The position numbers were made by a program, and so were the translations under genes. Below, in pieces: positions 1 through 12,343 of a DNA stretch of 64,000 nucleotides. The notes beneath the pieces are model-generated. The model saw nothing but the letters and a program-made list of their open reading frames with translations. It was not told where the DNA came from and did not search any database. Source of the DNA: a virus (Duplodnaviria > Caudoviricetes). The DNA lies in IMG/VR virus record IMGVR_UViG_3300032247_002042, positions 1 to 64,000 of that record; one strand, given 5' to 3'. Every line of letters begins with the position of its first letter. Within the stretch, counting starts at the first letter, position 1.

Positions 1-130
1 ATGATACCATACGGCCTCCCCTAATGCGGCGCATTGTAGGGAGTTTCTGCCGCGTGTGCCGCGTGTGCCGCGTGTGCCGCACGCACGTGCGGGAGCAGCC
101 CAGAGGACGCGGCCCCGGCATATGTATATA

Positions 131-161
131 GCCCCGCCCCTCTCGACCTGAGGGGCGGGGC
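131..161 (-). terminator. Hairpin terminator of cassette ORF 184-399
   Basis: 12-bp stem GCCCCGCCCCTC/GAGGGGCGGGGC just downstream of the stop codon, with an AT-rich tail on the - strand. Confidence 0.7.
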
Positions 162-183
162 AGGGCGGCCGGGCGGACTGGGA

Positions 184-399
184 CTAGTCTTCCGTGCGGT
201 ACATGTACTCGCACTCGAGCTGCTTGAGGTACTTGGCGTACCTCAAGTACTCTGAGTGCCGGATGTAGCCTACGAAACTCCCGCTCGGCCGAGTTGGAAC
301 CGTCTCCAGTCTCGCTACTGCGTACTTCACATTTTCGTGAGTGTCCCAAATCTCCCGAAGCAACTCTTCCTTCGGCATCTCGATGTACGGTCGCTTCAT
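184..399 (-). CDS. Cassette ORF A, 71 aa hypothetical (MKRPYIEMPK...)
   Basis: ATG directly after the repeat-borne SD AAAGGGG; the longer track ORF only reads through the repeat. Confidence 0.8.
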   Translation of the reverse strand: MKRPYIEMPKEELLREIWDTHENVKYAVARLETVPTRPSGSFVGYIRHSEYLRYAKYLKQLECEYMYRTED

Positions 400-433
400 G
401 GTGGTGTCCCCTTTCTGCAGTAATGATACCATA
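400..433 (-). promoter_or_regulatory. Repeat-borne extended -10 promoter (TATG-G-TATCAT) plus SD; promoter identical at 1-11, 905-915, 1292-1302 and 1705-1715
   Basis: - strand reads TATGGTATCAT-tactgc-AGAAAGGGGACACCACC-ATG; TRTG extended -10 with no canonical -35. Confidence 0.75.
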
Positions 434-541
434 CGGCCTCCCCTAATGCGGCGCATTGTAGGGAGTTTCTGCCGCGTGTGCCGCACGCGGCACGCACTCA
501 TGGGAAGCTTGCGAAGGACGCGGCCCCGGCATCCCTTATAA

Positions 542-569
542 GGGCCGGGTCGCCGTAGCGACCCGGCCC
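542..569 (-). terminator. Hairpin terminator of cassette ORF 576-881
   Basis: Perfect 12-bp stem with a C(UACG)G tetraloop on the - strand, followed by TTATAA. Confidence 0.75.
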
Positions 570-575
570 GGCCCG

Positions 576-881
576 TCATGCCGCCCGTAAGGCCCGTCGG
601 AGCCTACGGGCCGCACGGACTTTACGGCCCGAATAGGATGCCTCTGCCGATGCCTCGGCATCGGCCAACCATCGGAGCAAATCTCCGACGGTCGCCCCGA
701 GAGCCTCGGCGAGCGAGTCCTCTTTCGCCGCACGCGCCTCTTCGGCGCGTGTGTACTCCAGCTCTGCTTCCTTCCAGAGCATGTCCGCGCGCTGCTGACG
801 CGCGAGGCAATCTTCGCAGATTGGGCCAAGCTCCCACTTGCCCTCTTCCTCATCCCAGATGTAAACGCAAGTACAATTCAT
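576..881 (-). CDS. Cassette ORF B, 101 aa hypothetical with CxC...CxxC then a helical segment
   Basis: ATG after the repeat SD; MNCTCVYIW...ICEDC. Confidence 0.8.
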   Translation of the reverse strand: MNCTCVYIWDEEEGKWELGPICEDCLARQQRADMLWKEAELEYTRAEEARAAKEDSLAEALGATVGDLLRWLADAEASAEASYSGRKVRAARRLRRALRAA

Positions 882-1018
882 GGCGGTGTCCCCTTTTTGC
901 AGTAATGATACCATACGGCCTCCCCTAATGCGGCGCATTGTACGGAGTTTCTGCCGCGTGTGCCGCACAAGGCACGCACTCATGGGAAGCTTGCAAAGGA
1001 CGCGGCCCCGGCATATGC

Positions 1019-1050
1019 AAAAAAGGCCGGACGGGTTTCCCCATCCGGCC
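1019..1050 (-). terminator. Intrinsic terminator of cassette ORF 1058-1267
   Basis: - strand GGCCGGATGGG-GAAA-CCCGTCCGGCC-TTTTTT. Confidence 0.9.
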
Positions 1051-1057
1051 CGTTCTG

Positions 1058-1267
1058 TTAGGCGTACTGGTTGGGCAACAAGTATTTGCCCTCGTCCCAG
1101 TCCATGATGACGCACTGCGCCACCAGATCGCCTGACTGGGCGAACCCCCGGGCGATCTCTTCGCCCAGTCCGCCCGCGCGGACCAGCGCGAGGATGAAAT
1201 TCGTCCGGTCGTTCTTGCGAATGACCTCCCGGATGATCTGCGCCGATGGCTTTGAGAAACGTGTCAT
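1058..1267 (-). CDS. Cassette ORF C, 69 aa hypothetical
   Basis: ATG after the repeat SD; terminator follows. Confidence 0.8.
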   Translation of the reverse strand: MTRFSKPSAQIIREVIRKNDRTNFILALVRAGGLGEEIARGFAQSGDLVAQCVIMDWDEGKYLLPNQYA

Positions 1268-1410
1268 GTGGCGGTGCCCCTTTCTGCACTAATGATACCA
1301 TACGGCCTCCCCTAATGCGGCGCATTGTACGGAGTTTCTGCCGCGTGCGGCACACGCGGCACGCACTCATGGGACGCTTGCGAAGGACGCGGCCCCGGCA
1401 TCCCTTATAA

Positions 1411-1434
1411 GGGGCGAGGCATGTGCCCCGCCCC
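1411..1434 (-). terminator. Hairpin terminator of cassette ORF 1453-1680
   Basis: - strand GGGGCGGGGC-ACAT-GCCTCGCCCC-TTATAA. Confidence 0.7.
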
Positions 1435-1452
1435 GCGCCCCGCCCGTCCCCG

Positions 1453-1680
1453 TTAGTCAACGGGGTAGAACGTGAAGTACCCCGCAATCTCAGGCAGGGT
1501 CGCAATCCCCTGCCCTACGACCGTCAGGAAGAACTTCACGTCCGTGACATCGTCACAGACGGCTACGTAGCCGTCGCTCACGCGCGTGAGCGTGAGGGCA
1601 TTGAGCCCTTCAAAAAGACGGAAGGTGTACTGTTCGTCCTGCGCGACGGTCACGACGGTCACTGCGATCAACTCGGTCAT
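1453..1680 (-). CDS. Cassette ORF D, 75 aa hypothetical
   Basis: ATG after the repeat SD; hairpin follows. Confidence 0.8.
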   Translation of the reverse strand: MTELIAVTVVTVAQDEQYTFRLFEGLNALTLTRVSDGYVAVCDDVTDVKFFLTVVGQGIATLPEIAGYFTFYPVD

Positions 1681-1903
1681 GTGGCGGTGCCCCTTTCTGC
1701 AGTAATGATACCATACGGCCTCCCCTAATGCGGCGCATTGTACGGAGTTTCTGCCTCATTGCGGCAGGCGTCGAAGGGACGCGGCCCCGGGGTGCTCTGG
1801 GCCGCCTCAACGACCCAAACAACTAATTAATTCGCTGCTAGTTTCCCGCGCAGCGGGGGGCTAGCCGGGGATTTCCTATGCCCCCCCCCTCCTCCCCTAC
1901 CCC

Positions 1904-4067: not shown

Positions 4068-6101
4068 ATGGCGCGACGATACGTGTATGATCCCGCAACG
4101 AACATCTACAAGGCCGTTGGGGAATACCGGTACGCTGATGGAAAGAAGCACGATGGGTCGGAACCGAGGAAATCGCGGAAGCCGAGTGGCGATCCATCCG
4201 AACTTGTCATGCCTGCGACCAATGATGATCTTGCCGCTTCGTATGGAAAGAAAAAGGGAAAGAAACAATGGCCAAGCTTTGACGTGCAATCAAGCCGGAT
4301 TGCGCGGAAGGAAGGCGTGAGCGAGAAGGCGGCCGATGCGATACTGGCATCACGCGCCCGGATGCACAAGGCTACGCCAAGTTACGAATATGGCAGGAAA
4401 AGGAACGAGAGGATCGTGCAGGCTCGCGAGAAACGGCGTGCCGACCTGCCTGATGAGAACGGCGGAGTGGAGGAAGAGATGAGCAACAGTTTTGGCAAGA
4501 GTGTCCGGCGATATGAATACAACCCCTTCATGAACGCCTACATCGAGAAATCCGTCAAGCTGAAGACCGCGACGGCGGCCGCAAATCCGTGGGACTTGAC
4601 CATCAATGACGACGGAACGACGGATAGCGAATCGGTCGGGCATGATCCGGAAGGGAACAATCATGAGCCAAGCCGCGCCAAGAAGAAAGAGAAAGCCTTC
4701 AGGAAGACCAGTCGCCGCGCGTTGTTCCAGCCCGGTGAGGAACGTCTGGAAAAACCCGGAGACGACCATGATACCGGAGGGTTTGCTCCCGGGCAACTGG
4801 TGAAGGACTGGAACGAGGAAGAGACCCCTGAGGACAGGAAAAAGCGCAAGCGGAAAATCCGCGAGCAAATCGATCCTGAAGCAAAGCGCCATTTCGATGA
4901 AATGAGCAATGATGATATTATTGAACAAACTGATGATGGAGGAAATGCAATGGCACAGAAATTCACAAGAGGAATGCAGGAACCGGTGACGGTGACCAAG
5001 GCCGTCACCAATCAGGCAATGATTGCGGACATGATGGCGAAGCAATTCGGGTATTCCGCGCGTCAGAGCGTGGATGCAATGAGCACGCTTGTCAAGAGTG
5101 CGGCAAACATGCACGCCATCGAGGCGGGAAACCTTTTTGAGCTGCACGACAGTGGAGACACCTACGTGATTGCGCCGATTGGCCATGGCCCTACCGGCGA
5201 TCTTGCGCGGACCCTGCCGTTTGAGTATGTCGATGTGTTCGAGAACAATCTTGAGAAGGCGAAGATGCGTGCCAGCATGCAGCAGAAGGCAGAACTCCGC
5301 AAGAGCGTCATCGAATACGATTCCAAGCACTTCCATCGCAACGCGGTGGACGCCGTGCTTTCCAAGGGCTACCGTTTTGCAAAGGATTTGAGTCAGGAAG
5401 AGCGTGACGAGGGCGAGAGTGCCAAGCAGAACATCCGCGGAATGCTCGGGAATTTTGAGCGGACAACCTTGCCGCAGCGCGAGCGGGAAGGCGCATCGGA
5501 CGCCAAGCGGAACATCCGCGGAATGCTGGCCCGGCACGAACGGGACAATGCATTTGCTGACGATGGTCCGTCGCAAACAAGCGTTCGCAAGCCAGAGAGC
5601 GGCGGAAGCAGGGACGATGAGTGGGATCGCATCACTGGCAACAACCGGTACCGGTCAGGAATGCGTCAGGAGGGACAGGCCGGAATTGCCCGGCAGAACG
5701 CCATCCGGACGGGCAGAAAAAATGCAATGAGGCGAGACGATGACGATTTGGAATCGTCTTTCGGCAAGGCAAGCGAGGCAGATGCCGTTGATGGTCGGAC
5801 GCGTCGTTTCAGCGAGGCAGATGCCGTTGATGGTCAGACGCAGGGAAGGGGACCAATGACCGTGCCGCCAAGTCGTTTCACCGACGAAGCCATGCATGAG
5901 AGGAGAACGCAGCGGGCACGCGCCGAAATGAATGCAAGGGATCGGGCCGGTCGGGACAGGGACCGCACCACGCAGATGCAACGTGACAATTTCAATGCGT
6001 ACCGGGAATTGGGCGGCGGTCCAAACAAGGATCCCGACAAGGTTTTTAGCCGTTCATTGCTTGACATTTTCAACGGCAAGGGCCGTCGCAGGGGCCGGTA
6101 A
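4068..6101 (+). CDS. Large charged low-complexity protein, 677 aa (putative internal head protein)
   Basis: SD GGAG/AGGA; internal duplications; motifs shared with the two downstream genes. Confidence 0.75.
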   Translation: MARRYVYDPATNIYKAVGEYRYADGKKHDGSEPRKSRKPSGDPSELVMPATNDDLAASYGKKKGKKQWPSFDVQSSRIARKEGVSEKAADAILASRARMHKATPSYEYGRKRNERIVQAREKRRADLPDENGGVEEEMSNSFGKSVRRYEYNPFMNAYIEKSVKLKTATAAANPWDLTINDDGTTDSESVGHDPEGNNHEPSRAKKKEKAFRKTSRRALFQPGEERLEKPGDDHDTGGFAPGQLVKDWNEEETPEDRKKRKRKIREQIDPEAKRHFDEMSNDDIIEQTDDGGNAMAQKFTRGMQEPVTVTKAVTNQAMIADMMAKQFGYSARQSVDAMSTLVKSAANMHAIEAGNLFELHDSGDTYVIAPIGHGPTGDLARTLPFEYVDVFENNLEKAKMRASMQQKAELRKSVIEYDSKHFHRNAVDAVLSKGYRFAKDLSQEERDEGESAKQNIRGMLGNFERTTLPQREREGASDAKRNIRGMLARHERDNAFADDGPSQTSVRKPESGGSRDDEWDRITGNNRYRSGMRQEGQAGIARQNAIRTGRKNAMRRDDDDLESSFGKASEADAVDGRTRRFSEADAVDGQTQGRGPMTVPPSRFTDEAMHERRTQRARAEMNARDRAGRDRDRTTQMQRDNFNAYRELGGGPNKDPDKVFSRSLLDIFNGKGRRRGR

Positions 6102-6123: not shown

Positions 6124-9100
6124 GTGAGCGACATGAAGAGCAAGGCATCCCCAATTGACAGGCTTCGCATGGCAACAAGAGAATTGCAATTGTTTGCCAA
6201 GAAACTCAACACATCGCAATTTGCAGAGATGGACGGGGGAAGGGGAACGCCTGAAAAGCCGCTCAAGCCGAGCGGCAAGCAGGGAGTGCCAAATACGTTC
6301 ATGCCGGGCGGCCGCGATTCGGTGAGGGCGTCATTTGGGGATTTTGCCGAAATGGACGGAGGAAGGGGAACGCCCGAAAGGCCGCTCAAGCCGAGCGGCA
6401 AGCAGGGGGTGCCAAACACGTCCATGCCGGGCGGCCGCGATCCGGTGAGGGCGTCATTTGGGGATGACAACAAGGTTCCCGTACGGATTGATAAACCGGC
6501 TCAGGTGAAAAAGCGTCCTGTCAACAAGGCCATGACTGAACTCGACTTGTACGAAGAGGCTGTCCCGTTCTATTTCGGTGGTCCCGCAGCACCGCGAGAC
6601 CATGGCATGCCCACGCGCATGCGAAAGTCCCGTCCGAATATCGACATGCTTGTCGATTTCAATCGTCGCTCATTCGGATATTCCCGCATTGACACCTTGA
6701 AGACCCTTGCCAAGTCGGCAGGGGTCAACCCACTCGAGGAAACCTTGCTGGAAAAGGGCTTTCTCAAAGACCTTACCGGATTTGGCAAAAAGTACTCGCG
6801 CTCGTCGAGTACGGTTGCAGAAGACCCTGCTGCCAGAGCGCAAAGAGAAGCGCAAGAAAGGGCAGGAACGACAGGTTTGCCGCCGGGACCATCGGCTAAT
6901 GGTGGTCGTGCAAGAGACATGGCCACCGATGCCGGAAAACTTGAGCAGCCGGGAGATGCGGCCGGACCCACACCCGATCCGACGGCAACTGCCCCAACCC
7001 AGCGGCCGGACGCCACAACCGGACCCAAACCCGATCCGGCGGCAACTGCCCCAACCCAGCGGCCGGACGCCACAACCGGACCCAAACCCGATCCGGCGGC
7101 AACTGCCCCAACCCAGCAGCCGGACGCCACAACCGGACCCAAACCCGATCCGGCGGCAACTGCCCCAACCCAGCAGCCGGACCCACAAACCCAGCAGCCG
7201 GACGCCACAACCCAACAAACGACACCCCAGAATCAACAGCCGGACGCCAATGCGACGGCCACCGGCACAACCGGATTGACCAACAAGCATCAGCAAGCCG
7301 TTGATGCGTTGCGCCGGGTCGATCCGATGTCGGCAAATGGACAGGCGGTCATCAAGCAACTTGCAGAACAGCAAGGAACACTAGGAAAAGATGGGCGCAT
7401 TGGTGTAAACAAAAACGTGAATTTCCAGCAAGCATCACGCATGCTGACGTATTTGCGTCAGGCAGGCATCATCAGTCCGTACCAATCGCCTCACAAGGTG
7501 CAATTTGACGATCAGGATCATCAGGAGGAATGGCAGTCAGCGCATGGATTGGAAAACGCCCACAGTTCCAACATGATTCTGACCTCGGCAGGCAATCATG
7601 TCATCAAGGTCAACGGACATGATGGAACGCCAATGCTGTTCACCTATGATTCTTCCAAAGGATGGGTTCCCGCGGCTGGGGTGACCGCCAACGGAGAAGT
7701 CCGCATTGGCGGCGGACAGAATACGCAATATTCCCAGAATATCAGCAATATGCTGAACACGTACATCGGTGACGGCAGGAATTTCACTGAGGACAACACA
7801 TTCGTGCCGAACTTGCATAATCGCAAGTCACGCGAAAATCTTCACGCAGGATTGCCGGGCGGTTGGCACAGGCATGACGCCCAGCAGGAGAATGTGTGGA
7901 GCAACAGGCACGCAGCAAACGAGGACGCCGTACATAAGCAGTATTCTGACAAGAACATGGCATTGGCCGAAGGACCGCGTCAAGCCCCTGCAAGAGTGCC
8001 TCATTCGTTTGACAGCAGTATTGCAAGTCGCCCTGAAGCCACCGACGCCGGAAAGCCCGGCCCCTCGGTTGATCCTCGCGCTGATGCTGACGCCGGGAAG
8101 CCCGACCCCTCGGCTAGTCCTCGCGCTGATGCTGACGCCGGGAAGCCCGACCCCTCGGCTAGTCCTCGCGCTGATGCTGACGATGACCCTAACGCTACTG
8201 TTGACCCTAACGCTACTGTTGACCCTAACGCTACTGTTGACCCTAACGCTACTGTTGACGACGCTGACACTACTGTTGACCCTAACGCTGACACAGAACC
8301 TACCGAATACAAAGAGCCTAAGGATTTAGAGCGTCTTTCGTCAGCACTGCATGATAAATTAAAAAATCGTTTTGGCGGGCAAAAAAATCCTTGGTCCACC
8401 GACGAGATTTTAGATGCTCATGGCGAGATGAAGGGAATGTACCCATACGACAAAACACATGTTGATCATGTAGTAGAAGAAATGGCAGCGGAAGGTCATA
8501 AGATTGATACAAAACAGGCCGCTGACCTTATTGCGCATTACTCAAATATGCCAAAGGATGACGCAGGAAAACCTGACGATGCATCCAAACCTTCTGATGA
8601 AGAAATTCAAGAATTTAATAAAAAACTCGCAGGTCAACTTTACGCAAAATACAATAAACCAGAAGACCTCAAAACCGCTTCGCCGGAAGCGCATAAGGAA
8701 CTGGAAGATACGATAACCGGAATGTTTCAACGTTCTCCGGATAAAACAACACTCTTGGAATCAATCAAAAATGGGTCATTCACAAAGGATTTTCAACTAG
8801 CATTGCAAAAGCAAAATCCTAAACTTAAAGCAGTATTTGAAGTAGCAAGGGATGCTACTGGCAACAGGAATGCAGTGCCTATGTTGATACAACATTATGT
8901 AAACAATGTTGATACCGCCGCGTTGGCAAAAGATAGTTTGGAAGCCAATACTGAGCAATTGAAGGAAGTGATTCGCGACGGCGGTGAAACAATAGACGAC
9001 GACACCGCTGGCAGATACGAAAATGCCGGAGATTTAAAGAGATTTGCGCCAAATCTGCATGGTCAGTTGTTATCTGATTGGAGTCATGTAAAAAGCCCCC

Positions 9101-10995
9101 AATCCGTCGATGAAATTTTATCTACCCATCGCGAATGGAAGAACGACAATCCAGACAAACCATCATATCTTGATGACATAGTTAACCTAATGAAAAACGA
9201 AACGGGTCATGAGATAACCATAGACCAAGCCGCTAAACTTTTGACGCATTATCAAAAACTAAATGCAAACAACAACGCCGATGAAAATAACGGTAAAAAA
9301 AAAAATGAGTTAGCCGGTCCTGATGGTGAAGGATTAGAAACTGCTCCCACATACACAGACTCCGAAGTCGCCTCCAAAAGATCATCTCCCGCATTCACAG
9401 AGATAACCGATGGCACTGACACCGCAGGAAAACCAGAATCTGATGCTGATGCTGATGAAACCAATGCCGAACCTGAAAAATACGAGAAACCCGAAGATGC
9501 CGTACGTTTGGCTCCAGAATTGGCTCGTTATTTAAATAAAATTGCACAAATGCCGAATTTAAAAAACGTTTCACGCGAGCGATGGCTAGATTTTCATGAG
9601 CTGCATAAAAGGGAAGGCAAAAACTCTGGTCTCAATCATGTAATGAAGGAAATGGATAAGGCAGGCTATCCGGTTACTCAAGATCAAGCACTTGACATTC
9701 TTGTGCATCACGGAGGCTCGCGAAGCGATGAGGTAGAACCCGTCACCTCCGAAGCCACCCCCGAAAGATCATCTCCCGCATTGACAGAGACACAAGAAAG
9801 CACGGACAAATTGAAGGGGACATTATACAAAGGCGATCCTGCATCCATTGAAAGTGATCACCCGGAAGCACATGCGGCGCTGACTGATTTTGTTGGTGCA
9901 TTTAAAGGTCGAAGTGGAACAAGAGGAATTTTGGCTCAAATAAAAGCCGGAACCGCAAGTGACGGCATAATAAAACAAGCGGCAGAAAAAAATCCTGTAT
10001 TGCAAGGAATACTTGATAGCGAAGATGGTCCTGCCAAAATTAGGGAAATTCTGAAACATTACGGAATGTCATCTTCTCCTGCTACATCACCAAGGAGAAG
10101 AAACGCAACATCATCTCCTCCTCCTCCTCCTCCTCCTGCTACATCACCAAGAGGAGGCGGAGGAAGGGGAAGAAGAAGAAGAGACGAAATTCCTGCAAAG
10201 GACGAACCCCCACCCATAACAGGTGCCGATAACGAAGGATCAGAGTACCGCGGCCCAGAACACCTTTGGGAAACACATCCTGAAATTGATTCTGACCTTA
10301 GACAAAGCACAAGAGAAGTATATGATGATGCAAGAGCAAACGGAGCAACACCAGAAAGAATTCGTTCAGTACAACAAGCCATGACTGAACCTGCAACATA
10401 TATGGACATGGCGGCAAAAAGTCCAAATTACAAGCTCTTTATGGAAGATTTAAGAAAAAAGTTTGAAGAAAAAGGCACCAACATATCCCCAGAACAAATA
10501 GCAGAAATCCTTGCGCATTATCATGAGCATCATTCAGGTGTCGAACCAAAAGACCACTCAGAAAACGAACCCGAAAACGAATTAGAAACGGCAAGAACCC
10601 ATTATGCAAAATTGTCAGATGATGCCAAGGAGGCAATTCGGGAAATATATGATGGTTTTAGTAATGGAAAAGAATGGAGTGACATCAGAGGAAATCTATC
10701 AGGTGGTGTCAGGCATGAAATAGAACAGTTTAGAAACAACAATCCTGCGGTATTTTCCAATATGACAACGCATTACAATGATTTGACAAAGTCTCTCCGG
10801 CGCAAAAACATGCTCAGGAAATCCAAAACGCCCACTTATTCCACGAGCATTTTGCAATCGTTCAGGAATGATCCACCGCAACGTTCAACATCTGACATGC
10901 AAGCCGAAGAATTGGCGCGACTCATGAATAGAATGTATGGATATGGAGTTGCTCAATCCTTGAAAAAGATCGAGACTACATTTAAAAGGAATTGA
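6124..10995 (+). CDS. Very large repeat-rich protein, ~1620 aa (putative internal head/ejection protein); start at 6124 GTG or 6133 ATG
   Basis: Continuous ORF with tandem repeats and six degenerate helical domains. Confidence 0.8.
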   Translation: MSDMKSKASPIDRLRMATRELQLFAKKLNTSQFAEMDGGRGTPEKPLKPSGKQGVPNTFMPGGRDSVRASFGDFAEMDGGRGTPERPLKPSGKQGVPNTSMPGGRDPVRASFGDDNKVPVRIDKPAQVKKRPVNKAMTELDLYEEAVPFYFGGPAAPRDHGMPTRMRKSRPNIDMLVDFNRRSFGYSRIDTLKTLAKSAGVNPLEETLLEKGFLKDLTGFGKKYSRSSSTVAEDPAARAQREAQERAGTTGLPPGPSANGGRARDMATDAGKLEQPGDAAGPTPDPTATAPTQRPDATTGPKPDPAATAPTQRPDATTGPKPDPAATAPTQQPDATTGPKPDPAATAPTQQPDPQTQQPDATTQQTTPQNQQPDANATATGTTGLTNKHQQAVDALRRVDPMSANGQAVIKQLAEQQGTLGKDGRIGVNKNVNFQQASRMLTYLRQAGIISPYQSPHKVQFDDQDHQEEWQSAHGLENAHSSNMILTSAGNHVIKVNGHDGTPMLFTYDSSKGWVPAAGVTANGEVRIGGGQNTQYSQNISNMLNTYIGDGRNFTEDNTFVPNLHNRKSRENLHAGLPGGWHRHDAQQENVWSNRHAANEDAVHKQYSDKNMALAEGPRQAPARVPHSFDSSIASRPEATDAGKPGPSVDPRADADAGKPDPSASPRADADAGKPDPSASPRADADDDPNATVDPNATVDPNATVDPNATVDDADTTVDPNADTEPTEYKEPKDLERLSSALHDKLKNRFGGQKNPWSTDEILDAHGEMKGMYPYDKTHVDHVVEEMAAEGHKIDTKQAADLIAHYSNMPKDDAGKPDDASKPSDEEIQEFNKKLAGQLYAKYNKPEDLKTASPEAHKELEDTITGMFQRSPDKTTLLESIKNGSFTKDFQLALQKQNPKLKAVFEVARDATGNRNAVPMLIQHYVNNVDTAALAKDSLEANTEQLKEVIRDGGETIDDDTAGRYENAGDLKRFAPNLHGQLLSDWSHVKSPQSVDEILSTHREWKNDNPDKPSYLDDIVNLMKNETGHEITIDQAAKLLTHYQKLNANNNADENNGKKKNELAGPDGEGLETAPTYTDSEVASKRSSPAFTEITDGTDTAGKPESDADADETNAEPEKYEKPEDAVRLAPELARYLNKIAQMPNLKNVSRERWLDFHELHKREGKNSGLNHVMKEMDKAGYPVTQDQALDILVHHGGSRSDEVEPVTSEATPERSSPALTETQESTDKLKGTLYKGDPASIESDHPEAHAALTDFVGAFKGRSGTRGILAQIKAGTASDGIIKQAAEKNPVLQGILDSEDGPAKIREILKHYGMSSSPATSPRRRNATSSPPPPPPPATSPRGGGGRGRRRRDEIPAKDEPPPITGADNEGSEYRGPEHLWETHPEIDSDLRQSTREVYDDARANGATPERIRSVQQAMTEPATYMDMAAKSPNYKLFMEDLRKKFEEKGTNISPEQIAEILAHYHEHHSGVEPKDHSENEPENELETARTHYAKLSDDAKEAIREIYDGFSNGKEWSDIRGNLSGGVRHEIEQFRNNNPAVFSNMTTHYNDLTKSLRRKNMLRKSKTPTYSTSILQSFRNDPPQRSTSDMQAEELARLMNRMYGYGVAQSLKKIETTFKRN
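6220..6465 (+). repeat. Intragenic 123-bp tandem duplication (41 aa x2)
   Basis: FAEMDGGRGTPE(K/R)PLKPSGKQGVPNT(F/S)MPGGRD(S/P)VRASFGD occurs twice. Confidence 0.95.
6964..7182 (+). repeat. Intragenic 57-bp tandem repeat, ~4 copies
   Basis: GPKPDPAATAPTQ(R/Q)PDATT units start at 6964, 7021, 7078 and 7135. Confidence 0.95.
8044..8290 (+). repeat. Intragenic 45-bp (x3) and 18-bp (x4+) tandem repeats
   Basis: DAGKPDPSASPRADA units, then DPNATV units. Confidence 0.93.
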
Positions 10996-10999
10996 CAAA

Positions 11000-12343
11000 A
11001 TGACATTTTCGCCATTTCCGTTCAGGCTTGAAGCGTTTGCCGAAAAACAGGACAAGAACGCGATTGAAAGAAAGATCAAGGAACTGAAAATGCAAATTCA
11101 GTTTCTGGTTCAATCGAATTTTCCAGTTCTCGGCGCGACACCGTTTGGAGACTGGACGACACGCAATTATCTTGACCGCCATTTCAGTGGCGAGCAAATG
11201 GGGCAGGACTGGCGAAAGAACATGCAAATTCAACATATGCTCCAAGAGTTGAATCAATTGGAACAAGATCACAAGAGGTTGACGCAAAAATCAGGCGAAT
11301 GGAAACGGATGGATCAATATACAGACAAGTTCATCAATGCCATTGACGAAAATGAGGATGAGGCCGATCAGGATATTGACCGCGAGCACAACGGACCCGG
11401 AGTGCCGTCATTTGTCGGCAGGTATTCCCACGGCATCGAGGAACATCGCAACAAGCTGAAGCGTCAGACCCGTGAATTGCGTGAGCGCGAAAAGAAGGAA
11501 GCAAAACGAAGTGCGGATACGGACGCACCGGAATCAATTCTCCGGCGCATGGACAAGTATGCCGACATGGAAATTGACATTGTCAAGCGCAACGAAAAGG
11601 AAGAGGAAAATCGCATCCGTCGCGATCACCGCAATCCGAATGTGCCCAAAAAAGTTCGCAAGCGCAATCACGATTATGAAGAACATACCGACGATCTGCT
11701 TGAAGAAATCAAGAAACTTCAAAGACAAGAACGACAAGATGTGAAACGACAGTTAGGAAAATCCTACGACAGATTTGATGATTCGGAATTGATCAAGGCA
11801 AAAAAGCGCAAGAAAAAGAAATGGCCAAGTTTCGACACCCAATCCAGCCAGATAGCCCGGAAGGAAGGAGTAAGCGAGGAAGACGCTGATGCCATCCTTG
11901 CTTCCCGCGGACGCAATCACGGCACAAAAAAATCCCTCTCTGAGATGTTCTTGGTGGAAGTCTATAAATCAACGCAAGGGAAGAGGCGTACAAAACCATT
12001 ATCAAAAGTTTTAGACCCAAGCATGTTTTCAGCAGTCGCTGATTTGGTGCCCGATGCGGGCGACTTGGAGAATTTGCGAGATGTGAAACATAATTTTCAT
12101 CATGCCCTCCTTCCAGTAGATGTAGCATTACAAAGAAAAAGGAACTCCGTTGATCAACAAAACAACTTCGCACGGATTGCAAGTCATCCGAAGAGAAAGC
12201 CACTTGCGGAAACTGGCATGCCTCCCGGACTTGGCTTGGCACAAAAAGTCGTTGGCGCGGCTCAAAAATGGACCAAACCCGGATCGATAAGCGGACCTGT
12301 TATGGGTGGAATTCAACAAGTTAGACAAAGAATAGGATTTTAA
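11000..12343 (+). CDS. Charged helical protein, 447 aa (putative internal head protein)
   Basis: Shares the WPSFD.QSS.IARKEGVSE..ADAILASR motif with 4068-6101; internal RMD.Y.D...EEH duplication. Confidence 0.75.
   Translation: MTFSPFPFRLEAFAEKQDKNAIERKIKELKMQIQFLVQSNFPVLGATPFGDWTTRNYLDRHFSGEQMGQDWRKNMQIQHMLQELNQLEQDHKRLTQKSGEWKRMDQYTDKFINAIDENEDEADQDIDREHNGPGVPSFVGRYSHGIEEHRNKLKRQTRELREREKKEAKRSADTDAPESILRRMDKYADMEIDIVKRNEKEEENRIRRDHRNPNVPKKVRKRNHDYEEHTDDLLEEIKKLQRQERQDVKRQLGKSYDRFDDSELIKAKKRKKKKWPSFDTQSSQIARKEGVSEEDADAILASRGRNHGTKKSLSEMFLVEVYKSTQGKRRTKPLSKVLDPSMFSAVADLVPDAGDLENLRDVKHNFHHALLPVDVALQRKRNSVDQQNNFARIASHPKRKPLAETGMPPGLGLAQKVVGAAQKWTKPGSISGPVMGGIQQVRQRIGF

Follow-up and report, generated by a model that had tools for sequence, protein, structure and literature searches.

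The closest described counterpart of the locus analysed here is the promoter-early stem-loop (PeSL) cassette, reported for the T4-type phages RB49/phi1, PST/T4 and nt-1/KVP40 (Arbiol et al., 2010, PMC2839356; Comeau et al., 2014, PMC4122927). The authors of that work drew the analogy to integrons, did not find a dedicated recombinase and saw as yet no evidence of such plasticity outside the T4-type phages (PMC2839356). The present locus lies at the left end of a 64-kb stretch of DNA (the window), the first part of a linear IMG/VR phage record of 130,069 bp (IMGVR_UViG_3300032247_002042, hereafter G000) estimated to be 75% complete, and is an array of five near-identical direct repeats and the small genes preceded by them. 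The array is not an undescribed system, as an earlier note made from the sequence had proposed, but is the PeSL concept in a lineage that is not T4-type, since it matches the published PeSL model of modular shuffling (PMC2839356, PMC4122927). PeSL-type shuffling of autonomous expression units is the probable explanation of the locus.

As with PeSL, a composite element of terminator hairpin and promoter-like sequence that ends in a Shine-Dalgarno sequence and the start codon of a small ORFan is repeated, the elements are clustered in a hyperplastic region, a stem-loop beside or within the element is predicted to terminate or attenuate upstream transcription, and there is no known dedicated recombinase. 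In both cases, the elements mark the ends of insertions, deletions, replacements and rearrangements that distinguish close relatives, here in the form of three arrangements next to a 92-98% identical flank and of an allele replacement in the lineage of the related phage G002. On the other hand, G000 is not a T4-type phage. This large phage encodes a contractile tail and baseplate, a portal, a DnaE-type polymerase (phrog_405) and a TerL that is less than 30% identical to that of any GenBank phage, Mu-like or Campylobacter phages being the best matches; the element is therefore an analogue of PeSL and not a homologue. The unit is also far longer (110-260 bp) and far more uniform within the genome, an extended -10 element without a -35 stands in the place of the consensus sigma70 promoter with AT-rich upstream region, and the array adds a conserved box of 12-14 bp and a genome-specific homogenised core in the -35 zone. 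A second precedent is the host-takeover module of the Bacillus phage SPO1, genes 37-60 (PMC6873191, citing Stewart et al., 1998), likewise a terminal cluster of many small genes in short units with own promoter, strong ribosome site and terminators. The SPO1 genes are highly expressed; in the array, the promoter units are long and near-identical, and no homology to gp37-60 was found by PHROG and Pfam searches with the four genes of the array, open reading frames (ORFs) A to D, and 10 cargo proteins of a relative.

The repeat copies are 110-140 bp long, follow each other with start-to-start periods of 422, 482, 387 and 413 bp and are 84-100% identical over a 62-nt core, which confirms the number, spacing and near identity claimed before. 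A reversed-pattern control gave 0 matches, and no further copies or array motifs occur elsewhere in the 130-kb genome. All copies are on the minus strand. Copy 5 (1681-1790; extended -10 at 1705-1715, palindrome at 1727-1739, box at 1777-1790) is the first unit in the direction of transcription and is followed by copy 4 (1268-1404; 1292-1302, 1314-1326 and 1385-1398 for the same three elements), copy 3 (882-1017; 905-915, 927-939 and 998-1011), copy 2 (400-535; 423-433, 445-457 and 516-529, with leader and Shine-Dalgarno sequence at 400-422 and a central hairpin at about 472-499) and copy 1 (1-124; TATGGTATCAT at 1-11, palindrome at 23-35, box at 105-118), which is cut by the contig edge and the driven gene of which lies off the contig. 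Every complete copy leads, as the earlier note had it, with the promoter-like TATGGTATCAT and a Shine-Dalgarno sequence into the ATG of one unrelated ORF of 69-101 aa, namely ORF D (75 aa, 1453-1680), ORF C (69 aa, 1058-1267), ORF B (101 aa, 576-881) and ORF A (71 aa, 184-399), all on the minus strand. The array is indeed GC-richer than the genome overall (49%), with 59-67% GC in the repeats and 54-63% in the ORFs, where GC at third codon positions amounts to 67-83%.

Along the direction of transcription, the unit is composed of the GC-rich hairpin of the preceding gene, the box CCGGGGCCGCGTCC (12-14 bp, invariant across the G000 copies), a variable distal stretch, a GC hairpin, GAAACTCC, the palindrome AATGCGCCGCATT, TATGGTATCAT and 22-23 nt including AAAGGGG up to the ATG. 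The leader of about 17 nt carries the ribosome-binding site up to the ATG, so that this site lies within the repeat; the start of the -10 hexamer is at a fixed distance of 29-30 nt from the start codon, and the orientation of the unit is always that of the downstream gene. The central hairpin is expanded in copy 1, where a 9-nt unit GCGGCACAC occurs three times, loop-inverted in copy 4 and swapped for a shorter hairpin in copy 5. Its 9-bp stem is the same in copies 2 (472-499) and 4 (1341-1368) with the 5-nt loop reverse-complemented (CGGCA versus TGCCG), which amounts to a flip of the whole hairpin.

Every unit is immediately preceded by a predicted GC-rich terminator hairpin (-26 to -31 kcal/mol) and has a further hairpin within it. 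On the minus strand, the terminator hairpins follow ORF D at 1411-1434 (-26 kcal/mol, tail UUAUAAGGG), ORF C at 1024-1051 (a canonical intrinsic terminator with a 12-bp stem and UUUUUU, z -6.7), ORF B at 542-569 (-31 kcal/mol, z -4.3) and ORF A at 131-161 (12-bp GC stem, -30 kcal/mol, tail CUAUAUACAU). The suggestion that each ORF has its own hairpin terminator thus holds for the hairpin, present after all four ORFs, but a canonical U-tract is found in only one of the four, that after ORF C, and only those after ORFs B and C clearly beat shuffled sequences. The entire unit has no folding advantage over shuffled sequences (z -0.8 to +0.7), and the term 'structured repeat' therefore fits only the local structures, the 9-bp central hairpin and the palindrome.

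The left edge of the G000 contig falls within copy 1 at its -10 element, and an independent assembly in the European Nucleotide Archive (ENA), 99.9% identical and with the same D-then-C order, stops within copy 3. As both end inside a repeat, the array very probably runs on past the left edge of the contig, in agreement with the earlier note. On the other side, the divergent intergenic region at 1791-1970, which has no strand of its own, separates the minus-strand array from the conserved plus-strand p272 and thyA and forms the fixed boundary of the array.

Arrays were also found in phages related by TerL in IMG/VR (identity to G000 of 96% for G001, 83% for G002 and 78% for G004), where they adjoin the conserved block or sit at the contig end. 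Homologues of ORF C with 88-90% identity, located in two other arrangements, led to contigs of close relatives, two of which (L299 and L300) are independent assemblies from different samples, 99.96% identical over 11.3 kb, and represent the G001 phage (99.8% identical to the end of G001); the apparent cassette differences between the two are differences in gene calling only. Over 9.4 kb, this G001-type array comprises about 20 units with 24 ORFs, and it reaches the contig end; as the contig of G001 itself holds no unit, the far end of the array is not seen. Its long units consist of terminator, box, distal part and core, and its short units (59-79 nt) of the core only. G002 ends in an array of at least 13 units, extended to at least 17 by a metagenome contig, with units of about 230-260 bp that have in common with G000 only the box and the extended -10 followed by GCAG, the box often being present in two copies 38 bp apart. 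In G004 (184 kb), one end is taken up by an array whose repeat is unrelated, and the other end has thyA, as in G000. The box occurs inside arrays only, with 5 copies in G000, 13 in the G001-type relative and 24 in G002.

G000 and the G001-type relative share a collinear flank, 92% identical, that comprises thyA, p272, the divergent region and the first unit. Beyond it, the cassette order is D-C-B-A in G000 and D'-B'-C'-X-A' in the relative, with each ORF keeping the same type of terminator: the hairpin after ORF D also follows D', and a homologue of the hairpin after ORF A, with compensatory changes in the stem, follows the 130-aa cargo of the relative. As each ORF retains its terminator, the breakpoints are located between the terminator and the next start codon, i.e. 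inside the repeat. A third arrangement is displayed by independent contigs from two further samples (L301 and L302), which are 98.4% identical to the G001-type relative through p272 and the first unit. There, D' and B' are absent and the specific leader of the first unit, kept until about 8 nt before the ATG, runs straight into C'', a C-like ORF; the sequence shared at this junction is too short for a chimeric assembly to be a likely explanation of the join. The D-C adjacency of G000 is seen in three assemblies and the G001-type order in two independent ones. Cassette content and order hence differ among the relatives, whereas their identity throughout had beforehand been named as the outcome that would speak against a modular system. 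By this comparison, the repeats are the sites at which whole cassettes were deleted, inserted, reordered and exchanged.

The cargo itself has diverged unevenly. Between G000 and the G001-type relative, the orthologues are 31% (D, although collinear and in the same slot), 90% (C), 80% (B, aligned part) and 53% (A) identical on the amino acid level. The ratio of nonsynonymous to synonymous substitution rates (dN/dS) is 0.39 for A, 0.40 for B and 0.12 for C, within a cargo range of 0.12-0.60, which indicates real genes under purifying selection with very uneven histories; dS of the cargo is 0.33-1.2 versus 0.11 for p272 and 0.30 for thyA in the flank. In the 94%-identical variant of G002, identity drops to 81% in a single cassette, compared with 99.7-100% in its neighbours and 96-100% in the repeat stretches next to it. 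The cargo ORFs compared in this lineage have their substitutions mainly at third codon positions, a pattern clearest in the two ORFs on the other variant contig, L251.

The repeats follow a different course. Over the 34 nt that precede GTATGGTATCAT, identity is 98% within the five copies of G000 and 84% within the 20 of the relative, but only 51% between the two phages, with 10 fixed differences. Cores that are alike within and unlike between genomes, despite orthologous cargo and terminators, argue for concerted evolution by gene conversion. The G000 copies additionally show four-gamete incompatibilities, as polymorphisms in the distal, middle and proximal part give mutually incompatible partitions. 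Kept alike in the two phages are the box, TGCGCCGC, the -10 and the AGAAAGGGG leader. Together with the three arrangements and the breakpoints inside repeats, this mosaicism and concerted evolution bear out the proposal that recombination at the repeats adds, deletes and shuffles cassettes.

The extended -10 pattern TGnTAnnnT is kept in 5, 20 and 17 units of the G000, G001-type and G002 arrays, respectively, as TGGTATCAT in G000, with the variants TGGTATTAT, TGATATCAT and TGGTATACT in the G001-type relative and TGTTACACT, TGTTAGTAT and TGTTATCAT in G002, and the natural variants in all three arrays retain TGnTAnnnT followed by a (G/T)AG start zone. At its fixed distance to the Shine-Dalgarno sequence and the ATG, this pattern would fit the extended -10 promoter of a housekeeping-type sigma factor. 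The lack of a -35, and the homogenised, genome-specific sequence found there instead, suggest that a regulator particular to the phage binds at this site, and the box is probably a protein-binding site. A good -10 combined with a phage-specific motif at about -30 to -45 in place of the -35 also characterises the MotA-dependent middle promoters of T4; however, no MotA/AsiA homologue has been identified here and the motif differs between close relatives. A sigma-54 reading of TGGTATCATTACTGCA (GG-N10-GC) was rejected because the GG is absent from the G002 units. A constant helical phase of the box versus the promoter fits the spacings in G000 (80/101/112), but not those in G002 (71, 79, 81, 93 and 108-109). 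The canonical TTGACA-N17-TAnnnT is not enriched in the G000 genome (7 occurrences versus 3.9 expected).

According to the explanation considered probable, the array would be a hyperplastic region of small genes in an uncultivated large phage with contractile tail, each small gene, in relatives sometimes a gene pair, being an autonomous expression unit. The control element between the genes would be a composite of terminator hairpin, box, variable GC hairpin, -35-zone core, extended -10 and leader with ribosome-binding site. Host RNA polymerase would initiate about 7 nt after TATCAT, and the -35-zone core and the box may be the binding sites of regulators that switch all units together. As the comparisons show, the repeats double as homology tracts, in which gene conversion keeps the cores alike within a genome and crossovers between copies delete, insert and reorder promoter-gene-terminator cassettes, with divergent cargo alleles being exchanged.

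Several observations weigh against this explanation. The units have no -35 hexamer and a simple promoter scan called no canonical promoter, so that promoter strength and class are only inferred; the cargo gives no pointer to an early or host-takeover function; no phage recombinase was found in the 130 kb of G000, the genome being only about 75% complete; and the C-B-A adjacency in G000 rests on a single short-read assembly. Furthermore, the cassette order is unchanged in two short stretches that are comparable with a 94%-identical variant of G002, from which it follows that shuffling is not rapid; turnover is cassette-wise but not fast.

It is unlikely that the box and the -35-zone core are the sites of dedicated phage proteins, i.e. 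of a master regulator that co-evolves with about 20 promoters and of a factor targeting recombination or gene conversion, in a purpose-built cassette-exchange platform, as opposed to a side effect of general recombination. Nor is it any more probable that the array is an integron-like site-specific platform with the box or the palindrome as attachment site of a novel phage recombinase and with cassettes excised as circles and reinserted. The array does resemble an integron in being an ordered row of unrelated single-gene cassettes that are gained, lost and reordered, excision and reinsertion would easily produce the swap of B and C, and the box is the only upstream element kept between arrays with otherwise diverged repeats and is confined to them. 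Yet some units lack a box (six short ones in the G001-type relative, one in G002), the junction of the third arrangement is in the leader beside the ATG and not at the box, and mosaicism and homogenisation along the whole unit fit homologous rather than site-specific exchange. The 130 kb also yielded neither a tyrosine nor a serine recombinase: PF00589, the tyrosine recombinase family of IntI, had no match in the record while its controls matched, and a sigma factor domain, integrase, resolvase, RecA and RecT were equally not found, within the limit of a record that is about 75% complete. The absence of IntI and attC asserted in the earlier note stands in this sense. The repeats are promoter-like units on the 5' side and not 3' attC hairpins; a promoter-like unit and a terminator belong to each cassette, in contrast to the one Pc promoter shared in integrons.

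Another reading has the repeats as promoters for an RNA polymerase that the phage encodes or carries in its virion, comparable to the hairpin promoters of N4 or the long conserved promoters of T7 type. It would account for the lack of a -35 and for the long invariant sequence. Across the five copies, about 60 nt hardly vary, and a 5-bp stem with a 3-nt loop could be extruded from the palindrome AATGC-GCC-GCATT. This reading is nevertheless improbable, as the palindrome, present in 5/5 G000 units, occurs in 0/20 units of the G001-type relative, which keep the same TGGTATCAT, and the element common to all arrays is an extended -10 of housekeeping-sigma type; no sigma domain and, among the large proteins of G000, no RNA polymerase candidate was found, the T7-type search (PF00940) being uninformative because its control matched nothing anywhere. 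High identity of the copies, a copy number that varies between phages and a duplicated unit with its gene in G002 might also point to selfish intergenic repeats, comparable to miniature inverted-repeat transposable elements, or to leftovers of tandem duplication without a regulatory role. The constant orientation to the downstream gene, the 29-30 nt to the ATG, the ribosome site inside the repeat and the -10 pattern conserved across diverged arrays make this very improbable, and the mutually unrelated cargo proteins exclude plain tandem duplication. Least probable of all is that short-read assembly through repeats created the differences in cassette order. Assemblers do have difficulty with arrays, as is evident from the fact that all contigs reaching an array end within a repeat; but the order of the relative is reproduced in the two near-identical assemblies from different samples, the third arrangement is present in two samples with too little shared sequence at the junction for a chimeric join, and the repeat copies carry copy-specific differences.

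No function of the cargo was recognisable by Pfam, PHROGs, HMMER, Atlas, language-model, AlphaFold and Foldseek searches. The proteins A to D are mutually unrelated, match no PHROG or Pfam family and have no homologue in the G002 or G004 arrays; the 10 cargo proteins of the G001-type relative match no PHROG or Pfam family beyond those of unknown function, and two cargo proteins of this relative have 38-39% identical relatives in the G002 array. ORF A has no family match, ORF B has a Cys-rich N-terminus and a basic C-terminus and as only real relatives itself and B', ORF C is predicted to be a small protein of four helices (pLDDT 77) and gave no structural match, and the sole match of ORF D among 5.8 billion proteins is ORF D itself. 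In the G002 array, paralogous genes for 133-aa Cys-rich cargo proteins (L040, 5207-5608 and 7534-7935; 80% amino acid identity) are duplicated with a variant promoter unit; the one scanned, at 5207-5608, has no Pfam match.

Homology searches with the array, as recommended at the outset, gave no informative match, neither BLASTN against GenBank phages nor Foldseek with the cargo. The exact repeat core had no match in IMG/VR and JGI metagenomes, the 15-nt box alone had single chance matches only among the IMG/VR matches listed, Rfam returned nothing but sub-threshold chance matches, and the neighbour proteins p272 and p709 as probes found no relatives. Scans for paired boxes retrieved mostly coding tandem repeats (e.g. 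in G006), but also L248, L251, L295 and L296. ThyA was uninformative as a host marker.

Other features were observed on the same and further contigs. In the G001-type relative, a canonical TTGACA-N18-TACAGT promoter, unlike the -35-less promoters of the array, is located right after the last visible cassette, which encodes a DUF6011 protein (L299, 18483-18579). At the left end of G004, 6-7 tandem copies of a 25-bp unit CTTGGTGAACGGCAGGAAAGTCGGC are found about 4 kb upstream of thyA (L041, 433-610). A further phage contig that was a chance find, L165 (IMGVR_UViG_3300005077_000010, 124-2290), has at its end its own row of small genes behind repeated canonical promoters composed of TTGACT, 17 nt and TGnTATACT, with a leader hairpin and Shine-Dalgarno sequence. 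The right end of G000, outside the window (about 129,500-130,069), contains as judged by eye a tRNA-like stretch and a canonical TTGACA-N17-TATAGT promoter, after which direct repeats of about 37 nt (GGGACATGCCGGACACACCGGATGTATTGGATGTCCC) run to the contig end. Within the window, the ORF of 1623 aa at 6124-10995 carries in-frame tandem repeats of about 57 bp and about 123 bp (about 6940-7215 and 6220-6465), the copy number of which differs in the ENA assembly, and has no Pfam or PHROG match. Two proteins of unknown function, of 709 aa and 447 aa, have in common a short conserved segment (4224-4385 and 11822-11920) with 63-82% identity over 33-54 aa; G001 and G004 contain it as well.

With respect to its significance, the locus extends PeSL logic to an unrelated lineage of uncultivated phages, in which natural variants show deletion, insertion and reordering of whole cassettes. 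Two added features, the array-wide concerted evolution of that part of the promoter where a regulator site is expected and the short box that is unchanged amid a diverging repeat, open the mechanism to testing. In practice, short-read assemblies break at such arrays: all contigs reaching one ended within it. As they hold the fastest-changing genes of the phage, the arrays are a natural place to seek host-takeover or counter-defence functions.

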